From positions 22,723 to 86,722 of the forward strand of contig CAYFOR010000001.1 of assembly GCA_964344785.1 (NCBI GenBank): a stretch of DNA of 64,000 nucleotides, in the 5' to 3' direction. The stretch comes from an uncultured Piscirickettsiaceae bacterium. GTDB taxonomy: Bacteria > Pseudomonadota > Gammaproteobacteria > GCF-002020875. Shown one piece after another: positions 1,728-40,017 of this stretch. The notes under the pieces were generated by a model, which was not told the origin of the DNA, did not search any database, and saw only the letters and a list, made by a program, of their open reading frames with translations. The number at the start of each line of letters is the position of its first letter. Within the stretch, counting starts at the first letter, position 1. Made by a program: the position numbers and the translations under genes.

Positions 1728-3644
1728 CTACGAGCCGATCTCAGCGATCACTCTTTCCACAAGACTTGCCGCATCCAGACGGTGGTAACCCAACACCTCA
1801 TCATTGAGACCACAGGCGGGAACCTCTTCTACCCCCCAGCGTACAATCTTTCTGTTCCCGGCGAGACCTGCCGCAGCAAGGTGCGAGGTGAGCATCTCAC
1901 CCATCCCCCCTGTCACATAGTGATCATCCAGAGTAATCACGGTGCCAACCTCACCCAATACATTTTGCAACCACGCAGTGTCGATACGGTTGAGCCAGGG
2001 TTGATTGACCACTTTAAGCCCCACACCATGTTCATCCCGCAGCGTCTGCGCCGCTTTCCACGCCTCACTCAGAAGAACAGAGCCATAGGCAAAGAGCGTG
2101 GCATCCCCCCCTTCAGTCACCTCAACACCTCGTCCCAATTCCACGTTATACGCCTGCGGAAGCTGGAAAGGGACGTGATAGGGGATCGTGATCAGGCGCA
2201 GATAGGTGCTTTCACCGTTCTCTTCTACCGCCCAACGCAGTGCCTGCTTCACCTCACTCTCACAACAGGGCTGGAAGAGAGAGAGGCCCGGTACGGCGGC
2301 CAGCGCCGAGATGTCACGCACCGACTGGTGGGAGTGCCCTGGGCCAGAGGGGAGAACCCCAGCCAGGGACCCGGCATAGATGCTCTTGGTACCTTCGGTG
2401 GCATTGTTGTAGAAGTGCTCGTTCGGGCGTGTGGAGAGGAAGCAGGCGAAGGAGTGCACCACCGGGAGAAAACCCTGCAACGCCATACCACCCGCCTGAG
2501 AAACCATATCCTGCTCGGCAATACCACACTCGATGAAACGGTCAGGGAATGCCTTGGCAAACGGAATGAGGCCACAATCGAGCATCAGGTCAGCATCCAG
2601 TACCAGTAGCTCGGGATACTCTTTACCCAGCGCCAACAGCTCCTCGGCATAGGCGGCAATCAGTTTCTGCGGTTGCTGCGGCACTGCTTTCACAGGTCTT
2701 GGCTTGCCGACCAGGCTCAGCTCCGGCAGCTCCAGCGACTGCAGTTGCCGGTTGGCACTCTCCACCAGCTCTGCCATCGCTTTCTCGTAGTCCTCTTCCG
2801 AGGGGGCACCGCTGTGATAGCCATAGAGTTCGTCTTCCGCCAGTTCACCCGGCTCCATAAAGGAGACACCGCATCCCTTGACGGTATCTGCAACGATCAC
2901 TTTGGGACGGTCAGAAACTTCGGCACAACGCGTCATGGCCGCAGTAAGCGCCTCCAAGTCATTGCCATCACACCGGTCCACATACCAACCGAAGGCAGCA
3001 AACTTCGCCTCCAGATCGCCAAGGTCACTGACACGGGAGACATAGGTATCGGACTGCAGTTTGTTATGGTCAACAATGACAGTGATGTTGTTCACTCCGT
3101 TATTGACGGTGGGGCTGAGAGACTCCCAGAACTGCCCCTCCTGCAACTCCCCATCTCCGGTAAGGACATAGTAGTGACTCTCGTGACCACGCAAACGATC
3201 GGCAATGGCCATACCGCGCGCCTTGGAGATCCCCATACCGAGAGAGCCGGTGTTGGTAACGATGTGATCAGTCTCCACATCAGGGTGCCCCGGGAGGCCA
3301 TCAAGACGACGCAACTGCTGCAGCCCCTCTTCCGGTAACAGGCCGCAACCGATCATTACAGCATAGATACCGGGGACGTCATGCCCTTTGGAGGAGAAGA
3401 AGATATCACGAGGTTCTGCCCCCCCCTCCTGGTTGACCCGGCGCAATACGTTAAGGAAGAGCCAGGAGAAGATATCCATGCTGCTGAAACTGGAACCAAT
3501 ATGGCCAGAACCTGCATAAGAGATCATGGAGAGGGTGTTGATGCGTGACAATGTGGCGAAGAGCCGGGTACGGGCAACGGGGTCGCCATCGTGGCTACGC
3601 ACTGCCTGTAGTTGACTTACGGGGACGAAACGAATCTCGGACAT
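1728..3644 (-). CDS. Transketolase, full length (ThDP-dependent)
   Basis: 638 aa; N-terminal GSGHIGSSFSSMDI and the GDGELQEG ThDP-binding motif; Pyr and C-terminal transketolase domains are present. Confidence 0.85.
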   Translation of the reverse strand: MSEIRFVPVSQLQAVRSHDGDPVARTRLFATLSRINTLSMISYAGSGHIGSSFSSMDIFSWLFLNVLRRVNQEGGAEPRDIFFSSKGHDVPGIYAVMIGCGLLPEEGLQQLRRLDGLPGHPDVETDHIVTNTGSLGMGISKARGMAIADRLRGHESHYYVLTGDGELQEGQFWESLSPTVNNGVNNITVIVDHNKLQSDTYVSRVSDLGDLEAKFAAFGWYVDRCDGNDLEALTAAMTRCAEVSDRPKVIVADTVKGCGVSFMEPGELAEDELYGYHSGAPSEEDYEKAMAELVESANRQLQSLELPELSLVGKPRPVKAVPQQPQKLIAAYAEELLALGKEYPELLVLDADLMLDCGLIPFAKAFPDRFIECGIAEQDMVSQAGGMALQGFLPVVHSFACFLSTRPNEHFYNNATEGTKSIYAGSLAGVLPSGPGHSHQSVRDISALAAVPGLSLFQPCCESEVKQALRWAVEENGESTYLRLITIPYHVPFQLPQAYNVELGRGVEVTEGGDATLFAYGSVLLSEAWKAAQTLRDEHGVGLKVVNQPWLNRIDTAWLQNVLGEVGTVITLDDHYVTGGMGEMLTSHLAAAGLAGNRKIVRWGVEEVPACGLNDEVLGYHRLDAASLVERVIAEIGS

Positions 3645-3677
3645 AGTTCTCAGCTTTTTGTTGGTCGAAAGGTATCT

Positions 3678-5156
3678 TCAGATGGAATCGGGATTCACAA
3701 TCATGTAGACATCTTTCAGGTCGGAATAGATATCGAGTGCCTCGGTACCGGGTTCACGGCTACCGTTGCCTGACTGCTTCACCCCACCGAAAGGCATGTG
3801 TGGTTCCGAACCATAGGTTCCTGCATTCACCACCACAACGCCAGAGTGGGCATTATGGGTAAACTGCATGGCACGGTCGAAGCTACGGGTATGGATAGAG
3901 GCGGTGAGGCCATAGGGGCTGTCATTGGTCATCTCCAATGCCTCCTCGAAGTCACTCACCCGGTAGAGGGTGGCAATGGGGCCGAACAGCTCACAGGTGG
4001 AAATCTCGTCACTGGGTGTAACCCCTTCCACCAGCGTAGGGGCCATGTAGTAGCCATTGGCATGCTCTGGGGTCTCCAGTCGTTTGCCTCCGGCAAGCAG
4101 TGTTGCACCGGCCACGACCGCACGCTCGACCGAGCCGACCATATTATCCAGCTGACGCTGGTTGATTACCGGTCCAAGGTCATCGCCATCGTTTGGCCCA
4201 ATCTTGAGATTGGCAGTCGCTTCTACCAGCATTTTCTTGAAACGGTCGTAGACGGCATCAAAGATGATGATGCGACTTCCTGCTGCACAGCGCTGCCCGG
4301 CATTACTGAAGGCGGAGAGACAGACCCACTTCACCGCATTCTCCAGATCGGCATCATCACAGACCACCAGTGGATTCTTCCCCCCCAGTTCAAGCGAGAC
4401 CTTGGCCAACCGCTTGCCTGCCTGTTCGGCAATCCAGCGCCCCACACCCGTGGAGCCGGTAAAGCTGATCACATCGACCCCTTCGTGTTCAACGATGGGG
4501 GCACCCGCCTCCAGCCCCAACCCCTGGATCACGTTGAGCACCCCTTTCGGTATGCCGACAGCGTGGGCAACCTCGGCAAAGAGCCAAGCCGTAGCAGGCG
4601 TATCCTCTGCCCCCTTGAGCACCACGCCATTACCGCAGATCAGCGCAGGAAACACCTTCCAGGCCACATTGGCAATCGGGGTGTTGGCTGCAATAATGAG
4701 TCCCGCCACACCACAGGGCTGACGGATGGTCATGGCATATTTATTCTCCGCACCGCTGGTGGTGGTGCGGCCATAGAGGCGTTGCCCCTCACCCGCATAG
4801 AAACGGCCCAGGGCAATGGCACCACCGGTCTCTCCAAGCGCCTCCTGATAGCTCTTGCCGGTCTCCAGCGCCACAGTTCGCGCCATCTCTTCCTGGCGAC
4901 CTTCCAGCAGGTTACAGATCTTGTGCAGCAGATTGCCACGCTGCACTGCTGGTGTTTTGGCCCAAGCAGGCTGCGCAGATCGCGCCGCACTTACCGCAGC
5001 ATCAACATCCTCCTTATGGGAGCGTGCGAGATGGGAGATCACCTCTCCACTGTGAGGAGAGTATTTCTCCACCCACTCCCCACAAAGAGCAGGAACCTCT
5101 TCCCCATTGAGCCAGTTTGGAATTTGTTGTGGAAATGGTTGGTGTTCACTTGCCAT
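3678..5156 (-). CDS. NAD(P)-dependent aldehyde dehydrogenase
   Basis: 492 aa; ELGGKNP (catalytic Glu) and GQRCAAGSR (catalytic Cys) motifs. Confidence 0.85.
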   Translation of the reverse strand: MASEHQPFPQQIPNWLNGEEVPALCGEWVEKYSPHSGEVISHLARSHKEDVDAAVSAARSAQPAWAKTPAVQRGNLLHKICNLLEGRQEEMARTVALETGKSYQEALGETGGAIALGRFYAGEGQRLYGRTTTSGAENKYAMTIRQPCGVAGLIIAANTPIANVAWKVFPALICGNGVVLKGAEDTPATAWLFAEVAHAVGIPKGVLNVIQGLGLEAGAPIVEHEGVDVISFTGSTGVGRWIAEQAGKRLAKVSLELGGKNPLVVCDDADLENAVKWVCLSAFSNAGQRCAAGSRIIIFDAVYDRFKKMLVEATANLKIGPNDGDDLGPVINQRQLDNMVGSVERAVVAGATLLAGGKRLETPEHANGYYMAPTLVEGVTPSDEISTCELFGPIATLYRVSDFEEALEMTNDSPYGLTASIHTRSFDRAMQFTHNAHSGVVVVNAGTYGSEPHMPFGGVKQSGNGSREPGTEALDIYSDLKDVYMIVNPDSI

Positions 5157-5170
5157 CTGATTTTAATCCT

Positions 5171-5983
5171 TTAAAGTGCGGTCCAGCCGCCATCGATCAC
5201 CATGTTGGAACCGGTCATGTAGGATGAGGCATCCGACATCAGAAAGACCGCCGCACCGTTGTACTCCGACTCATCCGCCATTCTCCCCATCGGCACACGA
5301 CCACAATAATTCTCCAGAAACTCCTCATCCTGGTGATTGAAGACGCCACCAAAGGAGAGCACGTTGGCCCGAACCCCCTGCCGTCCCCAGTAGGCCGCCA
5401 GATAGCGGGTGAAGTTGATCAGTGCAGACTTGGAGGTCGCATAGGCGACCGGTTTGTAGAAGACTTCCCCTCGCTGGCGACGATATTCGTAGATGGACTG
5501 GTCGGGGGAGACCATGCCGTAGGTGGAGCCGATGTTGACGATGGAACCGCCCCCTGCTTTCGCCATCATTTCACCGAATACCTGACAGGCGAGGAAGATG
5601 CCGGTTACATTCACCTCCATCACCTTGCGGAAAGACTCCTCAGGGTAGCTCTCGAAAGGGCCATTCTCTTCCGCAGGTGCCCCCGGCGGCGAGTCGAGGG
5701 CAGCGTTGTTGATCAGCCCGTAGGGGGTGCCGAGCTTCTCTTTAACTCTCTCTGCCGCCGCCACCAGTGCGCCACGATCGGTAATGTCTGCGCCAACAAA
5801 GAGCACACGCTCCTCCCCCAACGAAACGAACTCTTCTGCCAGCTCACCGATACCGGGAAGATCGATCACTGCCACCTTGGCACCATGCTGCAACAGTGTC
5901 CGGGTAAATTGTCGCCCCAACTGCCCCAGGCCACCGGTTACCACCACCACACGATCCTTGAGATCGAATAACTCTGTACCCAT
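5171..5983 (-). CDS. Short-chain dehydrogenase/reductase (SDR)
   Basis: 270 aa; N-terminal VVVVTGGLGQLG Rossmann motif. Confidence 0.8.
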   Translation of the reverse strand: MGTELFDLKDRVVVVTGGLGQLGRQFTRTLLQHGAKVAVIDLPGIGELAEEFVSLGEERVLFVGADITDRGALVAAAERVKEKLGTPYGLINNAALDSPPGAPAEENGPFESYPEESFRKVMEVNVTGIFLACQVFGEMMAKAGGGSIVNIGSTYGMVSPDQSIYEYRRQRGEVFYKPVAYATSKSALINFTRYLAAYWGRQGVRANVLSFGGVFNHQDEEFLENYCGRVPMGRMADESEYNGAAVFLMSDASSYMTGSNMVIDGGWTAL

Positions 5984-5991
5984 AACGTTCT

Positions 5992-6522
5992 CTATTTCTC
6001 GTTAAACACTGAAACGATGAGGTCGCAAACCTCACGCACCGCGCCTTTGCCACCCAACAGTTGTGTACGGTAGCGACCATACGGGATCACATCCGGGTGA
6101 GAGTCCTGTACCACGATTGGCAGACCCACAACCTCCAGACAGGAGATATCGTTGATGTCATTGCCCATGAATGCGGCCTGCTCAGGCTTCAGCCCGCGCT
6201 GCTCCAACATTTCCAGAAGAACTCCACGCTTCTCATCACACCCCTGAACATAGGGCAGGCCCAACTTTTTACAGCGAGCCCCTACCACGGGATTCACCTC
6301 CTTGGAGATGACACACATCTCGACTCCCAGCTTGCGCAGCTCTGCCAGTCCCATGCCATCCAAGCGAGAACAAGCGACCGCTTCACGCCCGTCTTCCAGT
6401 ACATAGACCCCGTTATCGGTAAAGACTCCATCGAAGTCGAAGGCGATAAAGCGAAGTGTGCGGATACTCTCCTTCAGCCCTTCCGCTATCGGAACGGTAA
6501 AGAGGGGAGAAACCGATCTCAT
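5992..6522 (-). CDS. KdsC-family HAD phosphatase (3-deoxy-ulosonate/nonulosonate-phosphate phosphatase)
   Basis: 176 aa; FDFDGVFTDNGVY and MGNDINDISCL motifs typical of KdsC/YrbI. Its stop overlaps the start of the adjacent NeuB gene. Confidence 0.7.
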   Translation of the reverse strand: MRSVSPLFTVPIAEGLKESIRTLRFIAFDFDGVFTDNGVYVLEDGREAVACSRLDGMGLAELRKLGVEMCVISKEVNPVVGARCKKLGLPYVQGCDEKRGVLLEMLEQRGLKPEQAAFMGNDINDISCLEVVGLPIVVQDSHPDVIPYGRYRTQLLGGKGAVREVCDLIVSVFNEK

Positions 6523-7571
6523 TCGCTCAGGTTTTCAAAGAGGAGATTTTCATCCTCTGCGATCGGTCTCAGTGCCTTGCGTCCGAGAATTGCACCCATT
6601 TCATAAGGTGGCAGACCATCACCCGGGGACTTGATGGCGATATCCTCTTCGGTCAATACATGCCCTTCGGGCAAGGCACGAGCTGCAACCAGCTTCTTGC
6701 CCATCTTGTGCATCGGGGCAAGCTCCGATTCATAGACCGACTTGGCACCACTACCCAGTGCCAATCGGGTCCGGCGCAGATCACGCACCATACGACGCAT
6801 GCCTGGAGGTGCCAGGGAGAAGGCATGATCGGACCCTTTCATGGTACGGTCCAGTGTGAAATGCTTCTCGATGACCCGTGCTCCAAGAACATAGGCCACC
6901 ACACTCATGGCAATACCGTTATCGTGCGATGAGAGGCCGATGGTCGCCTCTGGAAAATCTTGACGAAAACTCTCAATGACTCTCAGATTGAGTTCTTCCC
7001 ATTTGGGTGGATATCCGGCAGTACACTGCAGAATACAGAACTGTTCATTGATGGGCATCACCTCTTCATAGACACGACGCACATCGTCGATGGTTCCCCC
7101 TCCTGTACTCACGATCACGGGCTTGCCAAATGAGGCGACATGCTTGATCAGTGGCAGATTTTTCAGGTCTCCGGAGGCGATCTTGTAGAGTGGCATCTCC
7201 AGCTCTTCCAGAAAATCTGCACTCTGAATATCAAAGGGTGTGGAGAACATCGTCAGCCCCAACTCCTTTGCATACCCCTGCAGCTCTACATACTCATCAT
7301 GCCCCAGTTCCAGCGCCTCACGATGCTCACCATAGGTCGGGGCAAAAGCACTATGGCTGTTATAGGTTTGCCCAAACATCTCCTTGGTAAACAGAGAGCG
7401 GTTATTCCGTTTCTGCAGTTTGACCGCGTCAGCACCACATTCCTTGGCGGAGTCGAAAAGCTTCTTGGCAAGCTCGACACTACCCTGGTGGTTATGCCCA
7501 ATTTCTGCGATGACATAACAGTCGCTCTCATCATCGACCCGCTTTCCGTCAATCTCTAGTCCTCTAGCCAT
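6519..7571 (-). CDS. N-acetylneuraminate (nonulosonate) synthase family protein, NeuB/PseI/LegI-like, with C-terminal SAF domain (paralogue 1)
   Basis: 350 aa; VIAEIGHNHQGS, TIGLSSHD and VIEKHFTLDR motifs; SAF domain at the C-terminus. Confidence 0.85.
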   Translation of the reverse strand: MARGLEIDGKRVDDESDCYVIAEIGHNHQGSVELAKKLFDSAKECGADAVKLQKRNNRSLFTKEMFGQTYNSHSAFAPTYGEHREALELGHDEYVELQGYAKELGLTMFSTPFDIQSADFLEELEMPLYKIASGDLKNLPLIKHVASFGKPVIVSTGGGTIDDVRRVYEEVMPINEQFCILQCTAGYPPKWEELNLRVIESFRQDFPEATIGLSSHDNGIAMSVVAYVLGARVIEKHFTLDRTMKGSDHAFSLAPPGMRRMVRDLRRTRLALGSGAKSVYESELAPMHKMGKKLVAARALPEGHVLTEEDIAIKSPGDGLPPYEMGAILGRKALRPIAEDENLLFENLSE

Positions 7572-7644: not shown

Positions 7645-8352
7645 CTACTTCTTGCGCGAGAGGATAAACTCTGTCAGTTCGATATCCCATTCGGTATCTA
7701 TGCTGACAAACTCCCCTTCCAGCACAAGAGCACCGGTCTTCCGCCCCTTCATTTTTCCCTGCTCCATCACACACTCACGGGTCAGTGCATAGCAGACCCC
7801 ATTGCGATGATAGACCGGCTTAAGCTGCTGACGGGCGACGATCTCGGCCCCCTTGGGATCGTAGTAATCCAGCTGATCCTCTTCCCCAACCACTAGCTGT
7901 TTCAACGGATGCCCCTTCGAGTCGGTCTCGGACAGTGTCCAGACCGAATCAAGATCTTCCTCCACCAGCTTTCGAATGGTAGCCTCCACCTGCTCCGGCT
8001 CTCGCAGCGGTGCTGTGGGCTGAAGAAGAACCGCAATATCGTAGCGCACACCATCGATCCGTTCACACTCCTGCAGCGCATGCTGCAGAACCGGAATATC
8101 GGCAATACGATCCCCTGCCAGGTCATCCGGGCGCATGAAAGGGGCCGCCAGCCCCGCTTCTGCTGCCACCCGTGCAATCTCTGCATGGTCTGTAGAGATC
8201 ACCGCACGATCGATCAACGGTACTTGACGCACAACATCCCCCACCAGCGCTACCATCGGCCGTCCACCGATCTTGCGCAGGTTCTTCAGCGGAATCCCCT
8301 TGCTGCCACCACGCGCCTGACAAACTGCCAGTACCCTTTTCCCTTCGATCAT
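7645..8352 (-). CDS. CMP-nonulosonate synthetase (acylneuraminate cytidylyltransferase family)
   Basis: 235 aa; ARGGSKGIPLKN glycine-rich loop of the NeuA/KdsB fold. Confidence 0.8.
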   Translation of the reverse strand: MIEGKRVLAVCQARGGSKGIPLKNLRKIGGRPMVALVGDVVRQVPLIDRAVISTDHAEIARVAAEAGLAAPFMRPDDLAGDRIADIPVLQHALQECERIDGVRYDIAVLLQPTAPLREPEQVEATIRKLVEEDLDSVWTLSETDSKGHPLKQLVVGEEDQLDYYDPKGAEIVARQQLKPVYHRNGVCYALTRECVMEQGKMKGRKTGALVLEGEFVSIDTEWDIELTEFILSRKK

Positions 8353-8366: not shown

Positions 8367-8996
8367 CTATACCATCCGTTCCATCAATTCCGGCAGGCCG
8401 CTCATCCCATCAATGAGATTGTGCGGCGGCTGCTGAAACGGATTCTCTTCGTTATCGATACCAACAAAGTGGCACCCCACCTCTTCGGCAGCGGCACGAT
8501 CGGGTTCACCATCACCTACCATCAACACCTCTTCACGCTTTACATGACACGCTGCCATGATGGCATTGAGGTTTTCACTCTTTCCCTGAGGCGCGCCATA
8601 GATACCATCAAACCAGTGCCCCATCTGTCGCAGATGAATCAACTCCGTGAGGGGGCCGGTTGGAGTGGCCGAGTTGACGTAGAGGCGCTTGCCCGCTCCA
8701 CTGAGGGCACGTAACGTCCTCTCTGTTCCAACAATTTCGGGGGCCTCGGTGATCTTTTCCTCACAGAGCCTGGTATAGCGCTCCGCCAGTTGTGCTGCAT
8801 CGGCTTTTTCGGAAAGCGCCGCTGCAAACTGATCAAAGACCCAGTACCGATCTCCTGCATCTTCACGCCCGAGTACCGATTCCATCAAACCCACACCGCC
8901 TCCAAACGCCTGTGCGACCTCAAAGAAGCTCTGGCGTTTGATGTGGTTGGAATCTACCAGGGTCCCGTCAAAATCGAACACCACACAGCATATCAC
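8367..8996 (-). CDS. HAD-superfamily hydrolase (phosphatase-like)
   Basis: 209 aa; VVFDFDGTLVDS motif I. Confidence 0.65.
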   Translation of the reverse strand: MICCVVFDFDGTLVDSNHIKRQSFFEVAQAFGGGVGLMESVLGREDAGDRYWVFDQFAAALSEKADAAQLAERYTRLCEEKITEAPEIVGTERTLRALSGAGKRLYVNSATPTGPLTELIHLRQMGHWFDGIYGAPQGKSENLNAIMAACHVKREEVLMVGDGEPDRAAAEEVGCHFVGIDNEENPFQQPPHNLIDGMSGLPELMERMV

Positions 8997-9010
8997 CGCT
9001 GACAGACCTG

Positions 9011-10540
9011 CTACTCTGCATCCATCATCTCGAAGCGCCCCCAGTGTTCCACCACCGTCTTGCGCTCCTCGCGTTCCATTTCATTGATACGCCGGTCATT
9101 ATAGGTGGAGTCGTTGTTGAAATGAGTCGTGGAAACCTCTTCAAAGACACACCCTTCCTCGGTCCAGAACCGGTGCCACACGCCAGGTTGTACCAGTGCA
9201 GTTTCTCCTGCATGGAGGGTGCGGCGATGTCCATCAACCTCGGACTCCAGCACTCCGTAGAGCACCTGGAAGGTCTCTTCCTTGCGCTGATGGAAGTGAA
9301 CGGGATGCTTCTGACCGGGAAGCTGGACGATGATCTTCTTGCAGTATTCGCGATTGATGCAGTTGATGATCAACGCACCGACCTCACGGAAATTCTCCAT
9401 ACCGTAGTGGTGGGAGAATTCGATCTGGAAATCGCTGTTCAGTTCGATACGGGCCTCATTGAGCAGCGCCTTCACCTCATGCACCGCATCCTTGAGGACC
9501 ATGTAGTCAGGCACTTCAGGCGTCTCAATCTGATCAATCATCACAGAGGCATCCTTGGGCATATCCGCCTTGCAGGCCACGCCTTTCTGCCAATGCCCAC
9601 TCTCCAACTGCCCCTCGTTATAGGGCATGGCAAAATAGACATCATCACGGCTCAGTACGGCCCCTTTCTTGACCGCTTTCTTCAGGTAGACACCACGGCG
9701 CAAACTGTCGATGGACTCTTTTTCCGCTTCCGGTATTCCGCGTGGTGCCTGTTCACCACAAAGCTTCTTGGCATAGAGGCAGGCCTCAATCCATCGATCC
9801 ACCTGCCCGGGCGTCGAAGAGTAGGCATTGAGTTTGATCTCGTCCGTCACCACCCCCACATGACGCTCATACATCCGTGCTCCCTTGGCTACCGCCAACT
9901 GCCCGGGCAATACATTATCCGGATCTTCATGGGTGGACCAGCCAATCGTGTGTTTGCGGTAACGACGACGCAGAATGTCGATCTGACTGAGATGGAACTC
10001 CTCGTCCGGAATGGGGTAGATCGAAACACAATGCATGATGGCGTGGGCAACGCCACGGTGCTCCATGAAACTCACCACATTATCGACATCACTCACCTCC
10101 AGTCCACCCGTTGAGACGATCACCGGCATACAGGCCGAGGCCACCTTTTCCAGCAACGGCCAATCCTTGGCCGAACAACTGGCAATCTTGAGGAAGTCGA
10201 ATCCCATATCGGTAATCACATCGACCGACTCTTCATCGAAAGGGGTACACATAGCGTACATCCCCTCCTCTCGGACTGCATCCAAAAGAACCTGATACTG
10301 TTCGCGATTGAGGCGAGTGGAGAGGAAGCGCTCGATATGTTTTGCCTTGCTTCCCTGCTGGTGGTCTGGGTGGATAAAGGTATCCAACTGACGGAACTGA
10401 AACTTCATCACCCCACGAATGCCATGTTTTCGTGCCACCTCGCCAATCTGGCGTACGATCTTCAGGCCGTGATCCACGTCTCCCTGATGGTTGTTGGCCA
10501 TGTCGAAGACAAACAGATCGGAAAAATCGAATTCTTTCAT
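9011..10540 (-). CDS. NeuB-family nonulosonate synthase homologue fused to a C-terminal cupin domain (paralogue 2)
   Basis: 509 aa; N-terminal FDMANNHQGD...IGWSTHEDP with NeuB-like TIM-barrel signatures; the C-terminal ~120 aa (PGQKHPVHFHQRKEETFQVLYG...GVWHRFWTEEG) is a cupin fold instead of SAF. Confidence 0.7.
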   Translation of the reverse strand: MKEFDFSDLFVFDMANNHQGDVDHGLKIVRQIGEVARKHGIRGVMKFQFRQLDTFIHPDHQQGSKAKHIERFLSTRLNREQYQVLLDAVREEGMYAMCTPFDEESVDVITDMGFDFLKIASCSAKDWPLLEKVASACMPVIVSTGGLEVSDVDNVVSFMEHRGVAHAIMHCVSIYPIPDEEFHLSQIDILRRRYRKHTIGWSTHEDPDNVLPGQLAVAKGARMYERHVGVVTDEIKLNAYSSTPGQVDRWIEACLYAKKLCGEQAPRGIPEAEKESIDSLRRGVYLKKAVKKGAVLSRDDVYFAMPYNEGQLESGHWQKGVACKADMPKDASVMIDQIETPEVPDYMVLKDAVHEVKALLNEARIELNSDFQIEFSHHYGMENFREVGALIINCINREYCKKIIVQLPGQKHPVHFHQRKEETFQVLYGVLESEVDGHRRTLHAGETALVQPGVWHRFWTEEGCVFEEVSTTHFNNDSTYNDRRINEMEREERKTVVEHWGRFEMMDAE

Positions 10541-10581: not shown

Positions 10582-11682
10582 CTATCCCAGGTTAAGCGCC
10601 TCGGGTACAAACCCCTTGCTGTAATCAATATGGACGGTTGCACCTTCCGCTGCCGACTTGTGAGCGGCTGCCACCACCATCATGGTCTCCAGTCCTCTCT
10701 CCAGGGAGATGGGAGAGGAGGCCGGGCCATCCACCAGTGCAGCCTCGATATGGCGCAACTCCTGAATAAAATCATCCGGCCGTGTCTTGCTGATTTCCGT
10801 CTCGGAGATCTCACCACAATCCAGGGCATGAACGACGGTGTCGATTCCCGGCTTATTGCCGCAATACCACTCCAGATAGCCATCGCTGCCCTGAACACGT
10901 GCCCATTTGCGGGTAGGACGAGTCACCACATCCTGGACCACACGCCCCACCATCCCGTTCTCGGTACGAACATGCATCAGACAGAGCTTGTCATAATCGG
11001 CACCACCTTCCTGGACATATTCCAGTTCAGCAGAGACCTCGACAATACGCCCGGCACCTGCCTGATGGGCATAATATTGCCATAGATTGGCGGCATGCGA
11101 GTGCTCACCACAGGCTCCCCCTCCCTTCTTCCAGAAACCGAGATAGGTATCCGATGGGCCATCCAGCCACGGATGTGCAGCGAAGATCCCGCCCCAGAAC
11201 TCACGAAACTCCACATCCATGGTATCGATGGTACCCACAGCCTGGGCAGCCAGCAGTGCACCAACGCGCTGGGCCGACTTGCCCACCACATGGTCATAGC
11301 CGGTGAAGACCGCCACACCGGCCTCGCCCGCCCGCTCCAGCAGTTCCTGACCACCGGCGAGATCGGGGCCGCATAGTGGTTTCTCCACCAAAATGACGCC
11401 GGGCTTCTCTTCCAGTGACTTCAATGCAAGGTCCATGTGACTATCGGGAGGCGTCCCAATGACCACCATGTCATATCCACCACTGGGAACCTCGTCGCAG
11501 GAGTAGAGTCCGATCCCTTCATCCCAGGCACCGTAGCGGCTGGGATAGATCTCATCCCTGGTACGTGCCAGAGCGGCAGAATCGATATCACAGATATCCA
11601 CATCCCACCCCATGGTACGGGACGCATTTGCCAGGTGATTGCCGATTGATCCGGCACCATAAACCTTAACTCGGTAAGCCAT
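10582..11682 (-). CDS. Gfo/Idh/MocA-family NAD(P)-dependent oxidoreductase
   Basis: 366 aa; N-terminal VKVYGAGSIGNHLA Rossmann motif and Gfo/Idh/MocA C-terminal domain. Confidence 0.75.
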   Translation of the reverse strand: MAYRVKVYGAGSIGNHLANASRTMGWDVDICDIDSAALARTRDEIYPSRYGAWDEGIGLYSCDEVPSGGYDMVVIGTPPDSHMDLALKSLEEKPGVILVEKPLCGPDLAGGQELLERAGEAGVAVFTGYDHVVGKSAQRVGALLAAQAVGTIDTMDVEFREFWGGIFAAHPWLDGPSDTYLGFWKKGGGACGEHSHAANLWQYYAHQAGAGRIVEVSAELEYVQEGGADYDKLCLMHVRTENGMVGRVVQDVVTRPTRKWARVQGSDGYLEWYCGNKPGIDTVVHALDCGEISETEISKTRPDDFIQELRHIEAALVDGPASSPISLERGLETMMVVAAAHKSAAEGATVHIDYSKGFVPEALNLG

Positions 11683-11764: not shown

Positions 11765-12430
11765 CTACTTAATCAGATAGAATTTCCCGGTGAATTCGTC
11801 ACGTTTGATTTCATTGATCCGGTCTCCCATGTATTCGTCAATCGCCTTCTGTGCACCTGGAAACTTGAGGTGTTCGCGTGTCGCCATGTATTCATCAAAC
11901 ATCACCACTCCACCCTCGATCACTCGCGGATAGAGCGTATCGAGCGCCACCTTGTAGGAGTCATAGAGATCCACATCGAGGTGCAGAACTGCAATGTCAC
12001 GTCCACGATATTTGTGCAGACTGTCTTCAAGAAAACCTTGAACCAGCGTCACCTGCGTATTGATCCAGTACTCATCCAGGCCGGCCTCTTCCAGCATCGC
12101 CAGGACACCGGGCAAGCTGGTCTCATTCCACTCTCCCTTTTGTGGGTTGCGGATACTCTTGTCGTGCTCGGAAGGCTCAGGGAACCCTTCAAAAGAGTCA
12201 AAGCCCCAGATATGACGCTGCTCCCTGTCTTCCTTTACCAGATAGCTGAACATGGCAATACTGCTCCCCTTGCCAACGCCACACTCTACAATATCCCCTT
12301 GCAGATGAGCGACCTGGTCCAGCACTCTTCTGAAATAGAGAAGGCGGGATGCATTGGGATACCCCAACGCCGGAACGGGCATCGCCTCGATCTTGCCACC
12401 GTTCTCAGCATACATATTCAATGGTTTCAT
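11765..12430 (-). CDS. TylF/MycF-family (macrocin-O-methyltransferase-like) SAM-dependent methyltransferase
   Basis: 221 aa; IVECGVGKGSS and the LDVDLYDSY motif characteristic of the TylF family. Confidence 0.75.
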   Translation of the reverse strand: MKPLNMYAENGGKIEAMPVPALGYPNASRLLYFRRVLDQVAHLQGDIVECGVGKGSSIAMFSYLVKEDREQRHIWGFDSFEGFPEPSEHDKSIRNPQKGEWNETSLPGVLAMLEEAGLDEYWINTQVTLVQGFLEDSLHKYRGRDIAVLHLDVDLYDSYKVALDTLYPRVIEGGVVMFDEYMATREHLKFPGAQKAIDEYMGDRINEIKRDEFTGKFYLIK

Positions 12431-13929
12431 ATTCTCTTCCTTGCAGGCTGCCTCATCTGGCCTTTATCGGTCACAAGCTCCTTGAGCAGTGAGGCAAAAC
12501 GTTCACTATTTTTTCCATCTATATCGGTAAGCCATCTCTTCAACACCGCTCTGCGACCCTCCATCACCTCTTCTGAAGGAGTGTACTCCTCCGTCAATCG
12601 CTGCTTGATCAAGGCGACATATCGCTCCACATCACCTGCCACATCGAAAAGCTCCAGATCCTCAGGATAGAAACCAAGGTGCTGCCTGCAATCCTCTGAC
12701 TCGGCATACTCCCGAAACAGCGGCACAATCACCGCTTTCCCTGCAATGGCCGACTCCAGTGTGGTAGTGGAGCGTAGCCCGATCACGACCTTTGAGCGGA
12801 AAATGAGGTCATGCACATCAGCATCCGGATCAATACGAAAATTGGGCAACGATGACGGTGGGTGAGGTGAGTGCTCCATTTCCTGCAACAGTTCAAGCCA
12901 GTCCGCAGTGCGGAGATGTTTTGGCTTTGGCTTGATCACAAATTCCACTTCCGGCATCTCCGCCGCCAAGCGTAAAATTGCCATATGTGAATCACGGAAT
13001 TGCGCATTGTAGCAGTAAGCACTGGTATCCCCTATCTCCAGTCTTCTATTAATCTCTCCTTCAAAGGCCATGGGATAGCGAAAAGAAAAAAGAGTGACTC
13101 GTTCGCATTCCGGTTTGGGGTGATTTCCCTCATTGATACTCCGGAAAAAAGCATCCATCCTTGGCGGCCCCATTACAGTAATCTTCTCAGGTGCCACGAA
13201 TTGAGATTTGAGAAACATCTCCTTGTTGTCCTGATTCCAGGCAATGACCCGGCTGCAGTGAAATGGCTTTAACATTCGGTGTCGATCCGCCACTTTTCGC
13301 TGCAAATACTCTGTGATGACCAGGCCTTCCCTGAACAACAGAACGAACGGGTAGTTCAGCTCATCAGAGACTCTTCCCCAATCAATATCCTCCCGATAGC
13401 GTGCATTGGCACTGACCACAACATCAATCCCGAGATGGGCATAGAGCCTGGGTAAAAAATTTCGAAAAAACCCCCTCAGACGACTCCGACACTCCACTTC
13501 CCCATCCCCCTGCTCTCCTCCCTGAAACTCAATGAGATCAGCGTAGTTCTCCAGTCTGCAGAAGCTGTTGACCAGTCGGCTATGCCAATGAGTAGACATC
13601 TCGAGCACTCGCATGCCTGGCTCACCGGCCAGACTGACCTGATCACCGCGAAAATTGACCGGACTCAGAAATAGAGCCGTAATGTTCCCATCCGATTCAG
13701 TGGGAGGGACCCGCTCACCATCAGCCGTCACTTCCCGAACCTTCGTGGAAAAAAAGAAAACCAGTGCACCGTACAGTCCAAACTGGGCAAAAAGCTTGAG
13801 GATCCATACAAGAAACAGTTCCAAAATGGATTTGGTTATTTTTTTCATCGTCTCTGGAAAGGGCTTGCAGGCAACCTTGATGGGAAGGGGGATGCACAGG
13901 CGTGGCAATGATACCGCTGCCCCCTTCAA
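12427..13929 (-). CDS. Membrane-anchored polysaccharide-biosynthesis protein of uncertain family (capsule-biosynthesis/KpsS-like?)
   Basis: 500 aa; an N-terminal hydrophobic helix (ILELFLVWILKLFAQFGLYGALVFFF) followed by a large soluble domain (VIGLRSTTTLESAIAGKAVIV). No GT2/GT4 signature was seen. The likely true start is the internal Met at MKKITKS. Confidence 0.45.
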   Translation of the reverse strand: MKGAAVSLPRLCIPLPIKVACKPFPETMKKITKSILELFLVWILKLFAQFGLYGALVFFFSTKVREVTADGERVPPTESDGNITALFLSPVNFRGDQVSLAGEPGMRVLEMSTHWHSRLVNSFCRLENYADLIEFQGGEQGDGEVECRSRLRGFFRNFLPRLYAHLGIDVVVSANARYREDIDWGRVSDELNYPFVLLFREGLVITEYLQRKVADRHRMLKPFHCSRVIAWNQDNKEMFLKSQFVAPEKITVMGPPRMDAFFRSINEGNHPKPECERVTLFSFRYPMAFEGEINRRLEIGDTSAYCYNAQFRDSHMAILRLAAEMPEVEFVIKPKPKHLRTADWLELLQEMEHSPHPPSSLPNFRIDPDADVHDLIFRSKVVIGLRSTTTLESAIAGKAVIVPLFREYAESEDCRQHLGFYPEDLELFDVAGDVERYVALIKQRLTEEYTPSEEVMEGRRAVLKRWLTDIDGKNSERFASLLKELVTDKGQMRQPARKRI

Positions 13930-20343: not shown

Positions 20344-21249
20344 CTACACGGCTCCGGTGCGAACAACAATGGTAAGGGTTCGGCCAATACCGCACTTTGC
20401 CATGGCACGCCCCAGATTGTGGAAGTGCTCCATCCCCTGCCCAGCCATCATCAGGTCCATGGTGACTCTTGCATGATGGGCCGCTTTTCCCTGAGTCTGG
20501 TCGTTCACATAGTTCGAAGCCGGATGAAAGAGGAAGAGCTCTATCGGAAAACCGCCATAGAGGTCCAGCACCTTGCAGCCCGCTTCCTCAAAAAAATGGG
20601 GCAACGTGTTGCAGTTGAAGTAGTGAAGGTGTTGCGGTGGAGAGAACCAGTACTCCCGGTCCACATGTCCTATCTCCAACAGACGCTGCTGCATGTCACT
20701 ATAGTCGTTGGGAACCGTTACGACGAGGACGCCACCAGGCTCTACGATGGTGGCAAGCCGCTGAATCAGTGCCTCGGGGTCCAGTACATGCTCCAGCACG
20801 TTGTTCAGGGTACAGGCATGGTAGCGCTCGCCACGATCCACCGCCTCTTCCAACAGGCGGTAGGCGTCCCCGACACGAACCTGCTCTGCCACTTGAGGGT
20901 TAAGATTTTCAACCGCGAAACCAGAAAAATCGATTCCGCTCACTTCCCATCCTCGATCAGCCGCCGACGCCAGTACATACCCCTCTCCGCAGCCAACATC
21001 CAACAGCTTCCGTAGCGGCACCCCTGCTCTGGTTTGAAGCGAGTGTTCAATTGCATAGACGTGCTGGTCTGCACAGAGCCTCTTGTGTGCCAACTCCTCA
21101 TCACTATAGCTGCGTTGATAGGAGCGGCTCTCCGATTGCTGGTAATAACGCTGGTGATAGAACGCTGTCAGCTCCTCCTCATTAGGAAGAGGATCGGCAC
21201 TCTTATATCCTCCAGCTGCATCTACGCAGCGAAACGCCTTATCTTCCAT
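20344..21249 (-). CDS. Class I SAM-dependent methyltransferase
   Basis: Motif I LLDVGCGEGYVL. Start placed at ATG 21249 (MEDKAF...). The track ORF extends to 21462 but that would overlap the upstream gene. Confidence 0.7.
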   Translation of the reverse strand: MEDKAFRCVDAAGGYKSADPLPNEEELTAFYHQRYYQQSESRSYQRSYSDEELAHKRLCADQHVYAIEHSLQTRAGVPLRKLLDVGCGEGYVLASAADRGWEVSGIDFSGFAVENLNPQVAEQVRVGDAYRLLEEAVDRGERYHACTLNNVLEHVLDPEALIQRLATIVEPGGVLVVTVPNDYSDMQQRLLEIGHVDREYWFSPPQHLHYFNCNTLPHFFEEAGCKVLDLYGGFPIELFLFHPASNYVNDQTQGKAAHHARVTMDLMMAGQGMEHFHNLGRAMAKCGIGRTLTIVVRTGAV

Positions 21250-22090
21250 ACTGCGATTTGATCTGTTCCAGTGATTCCAGGAAGGTGTGTCCTGCTGGCA
21301 GGGCCGGAGATGGCTCAACGACACTGTCAACCGAGCGCCCCCCCGATAACCGCAGCGGTTCACTGCCGGGAATGAAGGTGTCACACAGCTGTTGCAGCAT
21401 CTGTGCAATGGTGAGCGGCTCCCTTCCAGCAACAAGATGCACGCCCTCAATCCGCTGTTCAATCACAGTAGCCACACTATCCGCCAGGTCGTCGACATAA
21501 ATGTAGTTGCGCTTACCAAGCCCATCACCATAGAGCTCCGGCACCTCTTCTGAATCCACTGCAGCGCTGATTGCACGATTCAGCCCCAGATGTGCGGGAC
21601 CTCCATAGCCATAAATCCCGGCAATGCGCAAGATGGCATAGCGATCGACACTGGCAGTCACGATTTGCTCTGCCAACAGCTTTGCTTCAGCGTAGGGAAT
21701 GGCTGGAGAAAGAGGAGTTGAAGCGTCAACCCTGGTCATCGCGCCATGAACCAGCGTGCCTGAGGCCAGCACAAAGTGAGCATCCCAACGCCGGGCCAGA
21801 TTCGCCAGAAGCGTTGTCGCCAGTACGTTGGTTCCAAAGAACTGCTTCAGCTCTGCATCCGGGGAGAAATCGACCCGTGTAGCCAGATGAACAATGGCAT
21901 TGCAGGGCGGCAACCCCTCCAGCAGGGCTGCTGCATCTGCACTATCAAAGTCTACAACCCTCTCTCCAGACATCCCAGAGGATCTGCGCAGCAGTGGAAC
22001 CACCTCCCAACCCAGGCGCTTCAGCTGCGCCATAACCGACTGACCGGAAAAACCGCCAGCACCCGTCACCAGTACCCGTTTTGACTCCAT
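21239..22090 (-). CDS. NAD-dependent epimerase/dehydratase (extended SDR)
   Basis: 283 aa; VLVTGAGGFSGQ Rossmann motif and YAEAK catalytic pair. Confidence 0.75.
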   Translation of the reverse strand: MESKRVLVTGAGGFSGQSVMAQLKRLGWEVVPLLRRSSGMSGERVVDFDSADAAALLEGLPPCNAIVHLATRVDFSPDAELKQFFGTNVLATTLLANLARRWDAHFVLASGTLVHGAMTRVDASTPLSPAIPYAEAKLLAEQIVTASVDRYAILRIAGIYGYGGPAHLGLNRAISAAVDSEEVPELYGDGLGKRNYIYVDDLADSVATVIEQRIEGVHLVAGREPLTIAQMLQQLCDTFIPGSEPLRLSGGRSVDSVVEPSPALPAGHTFLESLEQIKSQYGR

Positions 22091-22099: not shown

Positions 22100-22837
22100 T
22101 TACTGCTCGACACCAAGCAACTCTGGCCTGCGTGTTGCCAAAGACAAGGCATCCAGCCAGCTATACTCTTCCGGAAGATTGCACACCAGCGCTCGAATGC
22201 GCTCCATATCCTCTGCAGTATCCAGGGTCCAGCGAAGGTGTCCAAGGTCCGTCATGAAAGTGACCTGTTCACGATGAAAATCACCTGCACCATATTGTGG
22301 ATGGCTGCCACGAATATAGGGAGTCACATGCTCACGGGGAAACGGCTGCTCTACGCTACGGTCTGCCTCTCGCAAAGCATCCATGGTAAATACCTCCACA
22401 TCCAGGCCATCCGGGTAGGTTCGCACATTGCAATTTGAGACATAATCCGCCTCTCCAACTTCGTAGGCGGTGACAATCTCGTCAATCAACTCCGGATCAA
22501 TCATCGGGCAGTCTGCTGTGAGGCGCACAACCGATTCTGCTCCATTTTCGTCAGCCGCTGCCAGAAAGCGTCCCAGAACATTCTGCTCATCCCCACGAAA
22601 GGTTTTCACTGCAAGTGAGTCACACAGCTCCACCACCGGGTCATCGGTGGCATTGACCGTAGTGGCCACTACCACCTGATCAATACGACGAGCCCGCAAC
22701 ACCCGCTCCAGCATGCGTTGCAGAGCTGGTCTTCCACAGATATCCATCAGCACCTTCCCCGGCAATCGTGATGAAGTCATACGCGCCTGGATGATGGCAA
22801 CAACGCGCCCACGTTGACCATGCGTCTCCATGCTCAA
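22100..22837 (-). CDS. Cytidylyltransferase of the SpsF/PseF/NeuA fold (CMP-nonulosonate synthetase-like)
   Basis: 245 aa; VVAIIQARMTSSRLPGKVL N-terminal motif of SpsF/PseF-type cytidylyltransferases. Confidence 0.7.
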   Translation of the reverse strand: MSMETHGQRGRVVAIIQARMTSSRLPGKVLMDICGRPALQRMLERVLRARRIDQVVVATTVNATDDPVVELCDSLAVKTFRGDEQNVLGRFLAAADENGAESVVRLTADCPMIDPELIDEIVTAYEVGEADYVSNCNVRTYPDGLDVEVFTMDALREADRSVEQPFPREHVTPYIRGSHPQYGAGDFHREQVTFMTDLGHLRWTLDTAEDMERIRALVCNLPEEYSWLDALSLATRRPELLGVEQ

Positions 22838-24918: not shown

Positions 24919-25971
24919 TTATTCGAACAGCCCCTCAGTTACCGGTTCATCCACTGCCAGATCGCGAACGGCCCGGCAGCCCAGCACCTCATCATAACGT
25001 GCGGGCTCCAGTCCTCTGTGCTCTGGCAAAGGACGTTTGACCGTCAAATTCTCCTCTGTAAACCGCTCACCTGCAGCCAATGCACGACGCACAACCAGAC
25101 AACGCATGAATTTCTTTCGTGTCCCACCCAGAATCTCAGCACTCTCTTTGCCGACGTGTTTTCCCATCACAGTCTCTGCCTGACGTACCCGGGTTACCAA
25201 TCTGCGCAGACCCTCAGGATCAACCGAGATATGATGATCCAAACCACTACGTGAGGGGTCCAGAGTAAAGTGTTTCTCAATCATGCTCGCTCCGGCCGCA
25301 ACAGCAAGTGCCGCCGCTTCATCTCCCAGCGAGTGGTCCGAAAAGCCGACCGGTACTTCCCACTTCCTAGACATCCGCTCCATAGTCGCGAGATTGAGTG
25401 TTTCAGGAGGTGCCGGGTAGAGGGAGGTACACTGAAAGAGGGCAATCTTGTCCGCCCCCTCCTGCCGTACCATCTTTAGTGCGGTATCAAGCTCTGCCTC
25501 CTCTGCCATACCACTGGAGATCAGAATGGGCCTGCTGTAGCCGGCAATACGGCGAATCAGCGGGAGATGGGTCAGCAATCCCGATGAAACCTTGTGTGCG
25601 GCTGGCTGCAGTGCCTCAACCCATTGCAGGGTGTTGAAATCACCTGCGGTAGTGAGTGGCTCCATACCCAATGAACGGGCCAATTCAAACATCCTGGCGG
25701 TCTCTTCACGGGTCAGGCCCGCCCCCTTGAATACCTTATGACTCTCACTGCCTACCACATAGTTCTCATCGGCATCGATGGTCTGCAACTTGATGGCGTC
25801 TGCCCCGGCACGAGCCGCCTCTTCGACCATCCTGGCACACTGCTCGACACTCCCCTCATGGTTGACTCCAATCTCGGCAATCACCACAACCGGTGCATCC
25901 GGGCCAATTCTGCGGCGCCCAAATGGGATGGATGCCACACGATCCGTCTCTTCCATTTCGAGCTTCATCAC
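24919..25971 (-). CDS. pseI: NeuB/PseI-family nonulosonate synthase with SAF domain (paralogue 3; probable pseudaminic acid synthase given its neighbours)
   Basis: 350 aa; VIAEIGVNHEGS, GFSDHS and IEKHFTLD motifs; adjacent to pseG. Confidence 0.8.
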   Translation of the reverse strand: MMKLEMEETDRVASIPFGRRRIGPDAPVVVIAEIGVNHEGSVEQCARMVEEAARAGADAIKLQTIDADENYVVGSESHKVFKGAGLTREETARMFELARSLGMEPLTTAGDFNTLQWVEALQPAAHKVSSGLLTHLPLIRRIAGYSRPILISSGMAEEAELDTALKMVRQEGADKIALFQCTSLYPAPPETLNLATMERMSRKWEVPVGFSDHSLGDEAAALAVAAGASMIEKHFTLDPSRSGLDHHISVDPEGLRRLVTRVRQAETVMGKHVGKESAEILGGTRKKFMRCLVVRRALAAGERFTEENLTVKRPLPEHRGLEPARYDEVLGCRAVRDLAVDEPVTEGLFE

Positions 25972-25984
25972 TTTTCTCTCTTAT

Positions 25985-26962: not shown

Positions 26963-26975
26963 TGACTGGGTTCCG

Positions 26976-27944
26976 TTAACCGGGAAGACCTGCCATACGA
27001 CGTGCACGAACGGTCTCGTGCAGGATACGGGCAGCCTCCACCCCATCACATGCGGGCTTCTCTTGCCCTTCAACACAAGCAAGAAAAGATGCCATCTCTA
27101 CCTTGTAGTCCTCTGCTGCACTACTCTCCCACACCCACTGATTGAGCAGGGTACCATCGGTTGACGTATGCTGAAGACGACGGTTGCTGATCTCCAGGCG
27201 TAGAAAGCCGCTTGAGCCACAAATTTCCGTTACCCTGTATTTTGGACGGGTGATGTAATCCACGTGAGTAACCGAAACCAAACCATCAGGATGACGCAAC
27301 ATGATATCCGCACAGTCGTCACTTTCGATCTCCAGTTGACCACTGGTTCTCGCCTCGCATGCCACCGTCTCACCCGCTCCAAAAAGATAGTTGGCCAGAT
27401 CGAGTTCATGAATGGAGTCAAACAGCACACCACCGCTCTTCGGATCAGCGGCATACCCTTTTCGATAATCACTATCCGGTCGCCAATCGGGCAGATAGGA
27501 GCCACACATCAGCCGACTCCAGAGTATCTCTCCAATCGCGTTAGACTCAATCAGTGACTTTGCCTTGCGAACACCAGGGTGGTAACGCAGATTCTGCCCT
27601 ACAAAAAAGACCCGTCCAGTACTGGCAGCAGCCTCAACCAGTGCATCCAGCCCCTCTATGGTATGTGCCAGTGGCTTCTCTACAAAGATGTGGCACTCCT
27701 GATCCAGGGCTGCGGCGCAATGATCAATATGGTGCGCATTCGGTGTTGCAACAACAACCGCTTCGCCTCCTCGAAGAGCGGCCTCGACACTGTCAACAGT
27801 CCGCCCCCCCTTCTCTTCGAGCATGGCTTGCCGCTGCGTGTCAGGGTCAAACCCGATCACCTCCGCACCAAGCTCAATGAGGTTAGTTGCATGACGCAGA
27901 CCAATGGAGCCCAACCCAAGAACCGCAACTACACGCCTAGCCAT
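26976..27944 (-). CDS. Gfo/Idh/MocA-family oxidoreductase
   Basis: 322 aa; VVAVLGLGSIGLRHA Rossmann motif. Confidence 0.75.
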   Translation of the reverse strand: MARRVVAVLGLGSIGLRHATNLIELGAEVIGFDPDTQRQAMLEEKGGRTVDSVEAALRGGEAVVVATPNAHHIDHCAAALDQECHIFVEKPLAHTIEGLDALVEAAASTGRVFFVGQNLRYHPGVRKAKSLIESNAIGEILWSRLMCGSYLPDWRPDSDYRKGYAADPKSGGVLFDSIHELDLANYLFGAGETVACEARTSGQLEIESDDCADIMLRHPDGLVSVTHVDYITRPKYRVTEICGSSGFLRLEISNRRLQHTSTDGTLLNQWVWESSAAEDYKVEMASFLACVEGQEKPACDGVEAARILHETVRARRMAGLPG

Positions 27945-40002: not shown

Positions 40003-40017
40003 CTAACCGCCCATAAG

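Follow-up and report, generated by a model that had tools for sequence, protein, structure and literature searches.

Which sugar would be made by an enzyme in which a sialic acid synthase-like barrel and a cupin are joined in the same chain? The question is raised by a gene located at positions 9011-10540 of a 64,000-nucleotide stretch of DNA from an uncultured Piscirickettsiaceae bacterium; the whole stretch is referred to here as the window. Its product is, by predicted fold and active-site residues, a member of the NeuB superfamily as well as of the lyxose-isomerase cupins. Ulosonic acids, among which are sialic, pseudaminic and legionaminic acids, Kdn (3-deoxy-D-glycero-D-galacto-nonulosonic acid) and Kdo (3-deoxy-D-manno-octulosonic acid), shape how hosts, phages and grazers perceive microbial surfaces, and the pathways leading to them serve the prediction of surface chemistry from genomes. 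The fusion family is abundant, deeply conserved and mis-described by current annotation, and provides a solid lead to a possibly new surface sugar. The gene belongs to a conserved small cassette whose product is probably an acidic, activated sugar of the cell surface that has yet to be described.

Domain architecture and active sites

The interval 9011-10540 is a single intact open reading frame of 509 codons on the minus strand, running from an ATG, with a Shine-Dalgarno-like GAAGAG 8 nt upstream, to a stop codon at 9011-9013. Reading the same interval on the plus strand gave no open reading frame, and this orientation was rejected. Pfam NeuB (PF03102) matches residues 44-255 (E=4.8e-39; 134.7 bits vs a cut-off of 22.1), Cupin_2 matches residues 408-461 (E=6.4e-12), and Lyx_isomer (PF07385), a model covered in part, scores 35.6-40 bits against a gathering cut-off of 20.8. 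More than 7000 homologues are found in databases. The fusion is not an assembly artefact, because the best 120 homologues (508-540 amino acids, 62-100% identity) all carry both NeuB and cupin, and the architecture is far beyond chance.

The AlphaFold model of the protein (pLDDT 89.4) begins with a TIM barrel (residues 1-262), which is followed by a small beta domain (283-340); a helix (345-362) then connects to the cupin barrel (373-497). The original prediction, made from the sequence alone, was that of a NeuB barrel fused to a C-terminal cupin, and domain search, structural model and matches in the PDB all bear it out; the two stretches by which the cupin had been noticed, a His-rich HPVHFHQRKEETF and GVWHRFW, are present at residues 412-424 and 453-459, respectively. 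The cupin had been thought to stand in the place of the SAF (antifreeze-like) domain of canonical enzymes. This is not the case, as a divergent SAF domain is retained at residues 281-340, starting at the invariant R282. By HMMER, residues 11-339 align to residues 32-377 of Bacillus subtilis SpsE, and residues 58-310 to residues 72-318 of Neisseria meningitidis NeuB (NmNeuB), the alignment extending through the SAF region. By Foldseek, 340 columns of the 351-residue NmNeuB chain are aligned at 25% identity, and 334 of the 336 residues of 3G8R are superposed on the model with a TM of 0.93; PDB entries matched by the NeuB part include 1XUU, 8H2C, 1VLI and 6NCS. Pfam SAF gives only a weak match, below threshold, on the excised 281-340 segment (E=0.063), and is assigned without reservation in homologues, one of which is P0271, a protein 46% identical to the query. 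Alignments, structure and homologues agree on a beta domain of SAF type from about residue 281 to 340. The cupin has therefore been added behind SAF, and the architecture is NeuB + SAF + cupin. On the minus strand the three parts correspond to 9755-10540 (barrel, residues 1-262), 9521-9700 (SAF, residues 281-340) and 9026-9508 (isomerase-type cupin with its connecting helix, residues 345-505). The cupin, first estimated at 120 residues, spans about 155 (349-505).

The active site of the synthase domain was mapped through the HMMER alignment to 1XUU, which covers NmNeuB residues 72-318; the counterparts of K53 and Q55 were located by eye. The metal and phosphoenolpyruvate (PEP) ligands of NmNeuB, namely K53, Q55, T110, K129, S132, S154, S213, H215, E234 and H236, all have a counterpart. 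The predicted metal histidines are H204 (9929-9931) and H227 (9860-9862), equivalent to H215 and H236, and K46, Q48, T99, K118, S121, S143, S202 and E225 are predicted to form the PEP site. Conservation was counted in 85 representatives, 32-53% identical to the fusion protein. All 85 have K46, Q48, K118, S143, S202, H204, E225 and H227, and the whole set, T99 and S121 included, is invariant or more than 95% conserved. The catalytic residues of the N-terminal domain, on which the original prediction could have failed, are thus in place.

Other NmNeuB positions have changed. E134 is replaced by S123, N184 by S173, D247 by N238 (85/85) and R314, the SAF arginine mutated in structures 4IPI and 4IPJ, by M305. 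In NmNeuB this arginine extends into the active site of the partner; family members have F, M, I or L instead. The canonical NeuB paralogue encoded at 6519-7571 of the window also lacks an R314-type arginine, which is therefore not universal. The E134 and R314 substitutions were considered as proof of a new substrate, and lost weight because both canonical NeuB paralogues of the window vary there too. D247 to N238 is the only clean, invariant signature specific to the family. NmNeuB, PseI, LegI and SpsE likewise feature a TIM barrel and a SAF domain, metal histidines and PEP-site lysines and serines. Unlike NmNeuB, the fusion has an additional isomerase domain, Met for R314 and Asn for D247, and amino-sugar genes are mostly not found near the genes that accompany it. 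The NCBIfam equivalogs for NeuB (TIGR03569; 131.7 vs 399.65 bits) and PseI (TIGR03586; 109.5 vs 340.25 bits) are missed by far, and the protein should accordingly be named neither NeuB nor PseI.

The cupin resembles D-lyxose/D-mannose isomerases over its whole length. Foldseek aligned 164 of the 171 columns of B. subtilis YdaE (2Y0O) at 29% identity, with a root-mean-square deviation of 1.9 Å, and both the overall fold and the N-terminal helix specific to the isomerases are matched. Further matches are the Thermofilum isomerase TsLI with bound fructose or mannose (7NZP, 7NZQ) and Z5688 of Escherichia coli O157 (3KMH). In TsLI the Mn ion is bound by H75, H77, E88 and H143, and the enediol is stabilised by K86 (PMC8378251). 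In the HMMER alignment to 2Y0O, TsLI H75, H77, K86, E88 and H143 correspond to H415, H417, K420, E422 and H456 of the fusion. The predicted metal and catalytic motif H415-x-H417-x2-K420-x-E422 is encoded at 9275-9298 and H456 at 9173-9175; a conserved E467-E468-x-S-T-T motif lies downstream of H456. In the representatives, H417 and E422 are each found in 84/85 sequences, H456 and E468 in 85/85; the K420 position is occupied by 72 K and 12 R, the H415 position by 69 H and 16 Q. Mean identity over the same set is 42% for the isomerase domain, exactly as for the TIM barrel, and 28% for SAF. By this pattern of conservation the isomerase domain is constrained as expected for a catalyst.

YdaE, TsLI (7NZO-7NZQ) and Z5688 share with the cupin the whole fold, the metal ligands and the Lys/Glu pair. 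In contrast to them, the cupin forms part of a larger enzyme and may act on a phosphorylated substrate; it is six residues shorter between H-x-H and K-x-E, and its C terminus is prolonged by a conserved basic stretch (R493, K494). The equivalog NF051472, which describes characterised isomerases, is scored by the cupin at 30.6 bits, far from its cut-off of 350. On the whole, conserved residues and the structural model indicate that the fusion protein is probably a bifunctional synthase and isomerase. The original prediction, that a bifunctional enzyme would make a stereoisomer of a nonulosonate, is supported in its first half, since a NeuB-type synthase and an isomerase-type cupin are present and retain the predicted catalytic and metal residues; nothing indicates that the cupin isomerises a nonulosonate.

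An ancient family and its gene cassette

Orthologous fusions, for which the original prediction had called, are numerous. An exhaustive search of 1.84 billion cluster representatives returned 324 at E<=1e-30, and these include, down to 32% identity (clusters at 50% identity), more than 100 full-length fusions from bacteria, members of the Candidate Phyla Radiation and archaea. The fusion is ancient and common. A tblastn search of the PLSDB plasmids at E<=1e-30 returned nothing. The members, which number thousands and are spread over many phyla, are at present annotated as N-acetylneuraminate synthase family protein; neither a paper on the NeuB-SAF-cupin fusion nor a functional study of the family was found in the literature.

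The only crystal structure available for the family is 3G8R, a structural genomics entry annotated as probable spore coat polysaccharide biosynthesis protein E, and the third domain is not in it. 3G8R was evaluated as a stand-alone relative lacking the cupin, and rejected. It is a truncated construct comprising the first two domains of P0271, a Chromobacterium violaceum protein of 495 residues which includes NeuB, SAF and Cupin_2 and is collinear with the window fusion from end to end at the identity given above. The short representative P0131, of 356 residues, is also incomplete, being a contig-end fragment. The Chromobacterium clade differs from the window fusion in having Gln at the first metal position and a different gene context. 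In this sister clade (loci L022 and L023), which includes Azoarcus, the fusion resides amid genes for a hexose-1-phosphate nucleotidyltransferase, a CDP-hexose 4,6-dehydratase, an RfbH-like protein, a thiamine diphosphate (TPP) enzyme, a C-methyltransferase and radical SAM enzymes, and the cluster adjoins flagellin in Azoarcus sp. KH32C. Such a context hints at a different, branched or extended sugar.

In the window, the fusion is the second gene of a cassette of four, all on the minus strand and separated by gaps of 41, 14 and 14 bp. A GFO/IDH/MocA-family oxidoreductase (10582-11682) lies immediately upstream; a HAD-IA, phosphoglycolate-phosphatase-like phosphatase (8367-8996) and a CTP_transf_3 cytidylyltransferase (7645-8352), of the type of CMP-ulosonic acid synthetases and PseF-like below cut-off, follow downstream (Pfam, NCBIfam). 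Context was monitored in 20 loci of the window clade, spread over many phyla. The oxidoreductase, 47-74% identical, is found directly upstream of the fusion in 16/20 loci, the cytidylyltransferase in 18/20, and a separate HAD-IA phosphatase in 13/20, to which two loci with HAD fused to the cytidylyltransferase are to be added. The series GFO, fusion, HAD and CTP_transf_3 recurs in Alpha- and Betaproteobacteria, Geobacteraceae, Nitrospirales, Fibrobacteria, Bacillota and cyanobacteria, as well as in Saccharibacteria, Anaerolineae and one archaeon. In Prochlorococcus MIT 1011 the four genes make up a compact operon, and further genes for sugar precursors are absent from its vicinity. Synthase, phosphatase and CTP_transf_3 enzyme encoded together are what is expected of a CMP-ulosonic acid cassette; the partner HAD is of type IA, not of the KdsC type (C0).

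Some loci are simpler. In L014 and L017, from metagenome-assembled genomes of an Anaerolineae bacterium and an archaeon, both the GFO oxidoreductase and a separate HAD gene are missing, and the cytidylyltransferase (8916-9965 and 6129-7163, respectively) carries a C-terminal mini-HAD with the four HAD motifs FDIDGV, FTARG, GKP and YIDD; fusion and cytidylyltransferase are the sole recognisable precursor-pathway genes there. L014, L016 and L017 keep an intact cupin and lack the oxidoreductase, which is dispensable in some lineages. The relationships of the oxidoreductase are of little help, as a PDB search gave only a weak match to inositol dehydrogenase (E=2.6e-4). A different type of gene association is found in P0124, a 723-residue protein in which NeuB, SAF, isomerase and HAD are fused.

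The flanks of the cassette are typical of surface-glycan assembly, and include flippases, Wzm/Wzt, glycosyltransferases, methyltransferases and KpsS/C-like proteins; at L021, KpsS/KpsC-like genes, identified by a weak Pfam match, adjoin the cassette. Genes for amino sugars of the pseudaminic acid type accompany it in only two or three of the 20 loci. The 6-deoxy-hexosamines originally envisaged as substrates are unlikely, most cassette loci having no PseB-, PseC-, PseG- or PseH-type genes nearby. The gene at 12427-13929 of the window encodes a 500-residue protein which matches, below cut-offs, models for a surface carbohydrate biosynthesis protein and for the BFO_1060 glycosyltransferase. Relatives of this protein, a candidate for transferring the new sugar, lie near the cassette in five other loci.

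A candidate route and its alternatives

Lyxose isomerases interconvert aldoses and 2-ketoses at C1/C2, and act on sugars in which the C2 and C3 hydroxyls are cis, as in lyxose and mannose; the aldoses that NeuB-family enzymes join to PEP are manno-configured. As a C1/C2 aldose/ketose position is missing from 2-keto-3-deoxy acids, it is more plausible that the isomerase precedes the condensation and provides its aldose. From the architecture, residue conservation, neighbourhood and fusion patterns observed, we infer substrates, order of steps and product as follows. The metal-dependent cupin would convert a 2-ketose of D-threo configuration at C3/C4, possibly with a terminal phosphate, into a manno-configured aldose via a cis-enediol. 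Fructose-6-phosphate is the favoured guess for the substrate, and xylulose-5-phosphate and sedoheptulose-7-phosphate are the alternatives. The NeuB domain would then irreversibly condense the aldose with PEP, and by so doing pull the unfavourable isomerisation forward; the result would be a 2-keto-3-deoxy ulosonic acid devoid of amino groups, or its phosphate. Kdn-9-phosphate would be the simplest product, but an analogue of 8 or 10 carbons is possible. The neighbouring HAD enzyme would remove the phosphate from the ulosonic acid phosphate, and the CTP_transf_3 enzyme would provide the CMP-sugar for surface-glycan assembly; the GFO oxidoreductase would probably serve a tailoring or precursor-supply step.

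Features of the loci give some guidance on the order and on the nature of the substrates. Fusions between HAD and cytidylyltransferase favour a dephosphorylation which follows the condensation, the phosphatase standing beside activation; loci reduced to two genes imply that substrates are drawn from central metabolism; the scarcity of amino-sugar genes points to a non-amino product. The core of the scheme, a cupin making a manno-type aldose or aldose phosphate which the NeuB domain condenses with PEP, is the reading that we tentatively prefer, and comes near to an even chance. The specific version leading from fructose-6-phosphate to Kdn-9-phosphate is doubtful.

Known pathways offer partial parallels. 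The Kdn-9-phosphate pathway is represented by the Kdn-9-phosphate synthase and phosphatase of Bacteroides thetaiotaomicron, and by NANS in vertebrates. As proposed for the cassette, it starts from a sugar phosphate of manno configuration and arrives at a nonulosonic acid without amino groups by means of a NeuB-family synthase, followed by a HAD phosphatase and a CMP-transferase; it is not known to include a fused isomerase or a GFO oxidoreductase, and its HAD is of the KdsC type (C0), at variance with the IA type of the cassette. The Kdo pathway (KdsD-KdsA-KdsC-KdsB) similarly combines a ketose-phosphate isomerase, a PEP-condensing synthase, a HAD phosphatase and a cytidylyltransferase. The components are nevertheless different, because the isomerase of the cassette is a cupin and not a SIS protein, the synthase is NeuB-type and not DAHPS/KdsA-type, and the HAD belongs to another subtype; moreover, the stereochemistry of lyxose isomerases would not yield arabinose-5-phosphate. 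The cassette might be a non-orthologous analogue of the Kdo pathway, i.e. a self-contained and undescribed route from a central ketose phosphate to a CMP-activated non-amino ulosonic acid, in which the oxidoreductase step gives a product of 8, 9 or 10 carbons whose configuration or oxidation state is new and unlike that of Kdn and Kdo, used to decorate the surfaces of microbes as diverse as Prochlorococcus, Saccharibacteria, Anaerolineae and archaea. We regard this as a possibility well below an even chance, if less doubtful than the plain Kdn version.

Several points weigh against the isomerase-synthase scheme. The sugars used by lyxose isomerases characterised so far, and by bacterial NeuB enzymes, carry no phosphate, and a route through phosphorylated sugars is thus assumed. 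Mannose-6-phosphate is already produced by most bacteria, and the window itself encodes a mannose-1-phosphate guanylyltransferase/phosphomannose isomerase (GMP/PMI) enzyme (33337-34779); with mannose-6-phosphate at hand, a dedicated isomerase would be unexplained if plain Kdn were the product. The strongly conserved GFO oxidoreductase is without a role in a simple Kdn route, and the HAD of the cassette is not of the KdsC type used in the known Kdn, Kdo and Neu5Ac-9-phosphate (N-acetylneuraminic acid 9-phosphate) pathways. R314 and D247 of NmNeuB are replaced. No biochemical data for any member of the family were found in the literature. Lastly, the 46%-identical sister clade resides in a different context, from which the CTP_transf_3 cytidylyltransferase is absent, and the chemistry of the family may be broader than the condensation of an aldose with PEP.

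In a rival order of the same enzymes, the phosphatase acts first. HAD would release a free ketose (fructose from fructose-6-phosphate), which the cupin would turn into mannose, the NeuB domain and PEP into Kdn, and the cytidylyltransferase into the CMP-sugar. Bacterial NeuB, PseI and LegI are commonly known to use unphosphorylated sugars; the HAD is of the IA type, typical of sugar-phosphate and phosphoglycolate phosphatases, rather than KdsC, and the NeuB-SAF-isomerase-HAD protein P0124 is compatible with this order. Lyxose isomerases such as 2Y0O and 7NZP/7NZQ also act on unphosphorylated sugars (PMC8378251). Fused domains, however, usually perform consecutive steps, and the fusion partner of HAD in L014 and L017 is the cytidylyltransferase rather than the isomerase; a free intracellular ketose would in addition be metabolically wasteful. 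We consider this order unlikely. Closer to the original prediction, and still less probable, is the notion that the cupin follows or accompanies the oxidoreductase, epimerises or isomerises either a keto-intermediate or the product, and gives a stereoisomer of a known nonulosonic acid. RmlC, FdtA and other cupins of sugar pathways are generally known to behave in this way, and the oxidoreductase so often found next to the fusion could generate an epimerisable keto-sugar. But the cupin is of the lyxose-isomerase type, with a metal site and the K-x-E proton-transfer residues, whereas epimerase-type cupins have no metal; it is kept in the three loci which lack the oxidoreductase, and is therefore independent of it; and the 2-keto-3-deoxy acid offers it no suitable position to act upon.

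The replacement of D247 by N238 in all representatives, and of R314 by hydrophobic residues, would suit an atypical acceptor. According to a further hypothesis, the PEP unit is added to the carbonyl of a complex, possibly nucleotide-linked sugar prepared by the cupin, and a branched or extended higher sugar is formed. The CDP-hexose, RfbH-like, TPP, C-methyltransferase and radical SAM genes surrounding the fusion in the clade of the 3G8R protein, and the lack of CTP_transf_3 there, go in the same direction. In the window clade, in contrast, the fusion is closely associated with a phosphatase and with a cytidylyltransferase of the CMP-ulosonate type, the signature of a pathway for a free 2-keto-3-deoxy acid, and no hexose-1-phosphate nucleotidyltransferase is conserved in its loci; we deem the hypothesis improbable for the window protein. 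The least probable of the readings considered is that the cupin is catalytically silent, and serves an ordinary NeuB-type synthase as a sugar-binding, regulatory or oligomerisation module. About one fifth of the representatives (16/85), the C. violaceum protein included, have H415 changed to Q, and the domain could stabilise assembly, lyxose isomerases and NeuB enzymes being both dimers. Yet the other metal ligands, the catalytic K/E pair and the E-E-x-S-T-T motif hardly vary even between very deeply diverged members, and the domain is as conserved as the barrel, which is unexpected for a structural appendage.

If the coupling of isomerase and synthase holds true, the fusion would represent a new entry into ulosonic acid biosynthesis straight from central ketose phosphates, widespread annotations as sialic acid synthase would be corrected, and a one-polypeptide biocatalyst converting cheap ketoses into Kdn-type sugars would be available.

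The surrounding glycan island

The fusion gene resides in a co-directional island of about 38 kb (from about 1 to 38.3 kb of the window), bounded by tRNA-Ser(GGA), pgsA, cysC and uvrC. The tRNA-Ser(GGA) gene (38504-38591) is located exactly at the inner edge of the island, and adjoins pgsA, cysC and uvrC (38662-41829). The island may have been inserted at this housekeeping junction, or be hypervariable there.

Three NeuB-family synthases (6519-7571, 9011-10540 and 24919-25971) and at least two CMP-type cytidylyltransferases (7645-8352 and 22100-22837) are encoded in the island, and the organism probably makes several different ulosonic acids. Given the two additional paralogues, the fusion is not the sole ulosonic acid synthase of the cell, and probably makes a distinct sugar. 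The canonical NeuB + SAF enzyme encoded on the minus strand at 6519-7571 overlaps by 4 bp a KdsC-type phosphatase (5992-6522), which is paired with it and not with the fusion. The minus-strand interval 1728-7571 holds an unusual set, in which the NeuB/KdsC pair is followed by a short-chain dehydrogenase/reductase, an aldehyde dehydrogenase and a transketolase-like TPP enzyme. Such a combination suggests a phospho-sugar route, of the Kdn-9-phosphate or Neu5Ac-9-phosphate type, with extra tailoring.

The third synthase belongs to a near-complete pseudaminic acid set (24919-31675), made of PseI-like (24919-25971), PseG-like (25985-27082), PseH-like (27937-28494), PseB (28534-29562) and PseC (30470-31675) genes. 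A GFO-family oxidoreductase (26976-27944) and an LmbE/BshB-like deacetylase (29719-30411) are interleaved with them. Elsewhere in the island, the minus-strand open reading frames 20344-21462 and 21239-22090 overlap by 224 bp, and the TTG start of the methyltransferase has probably been called too far upstream.

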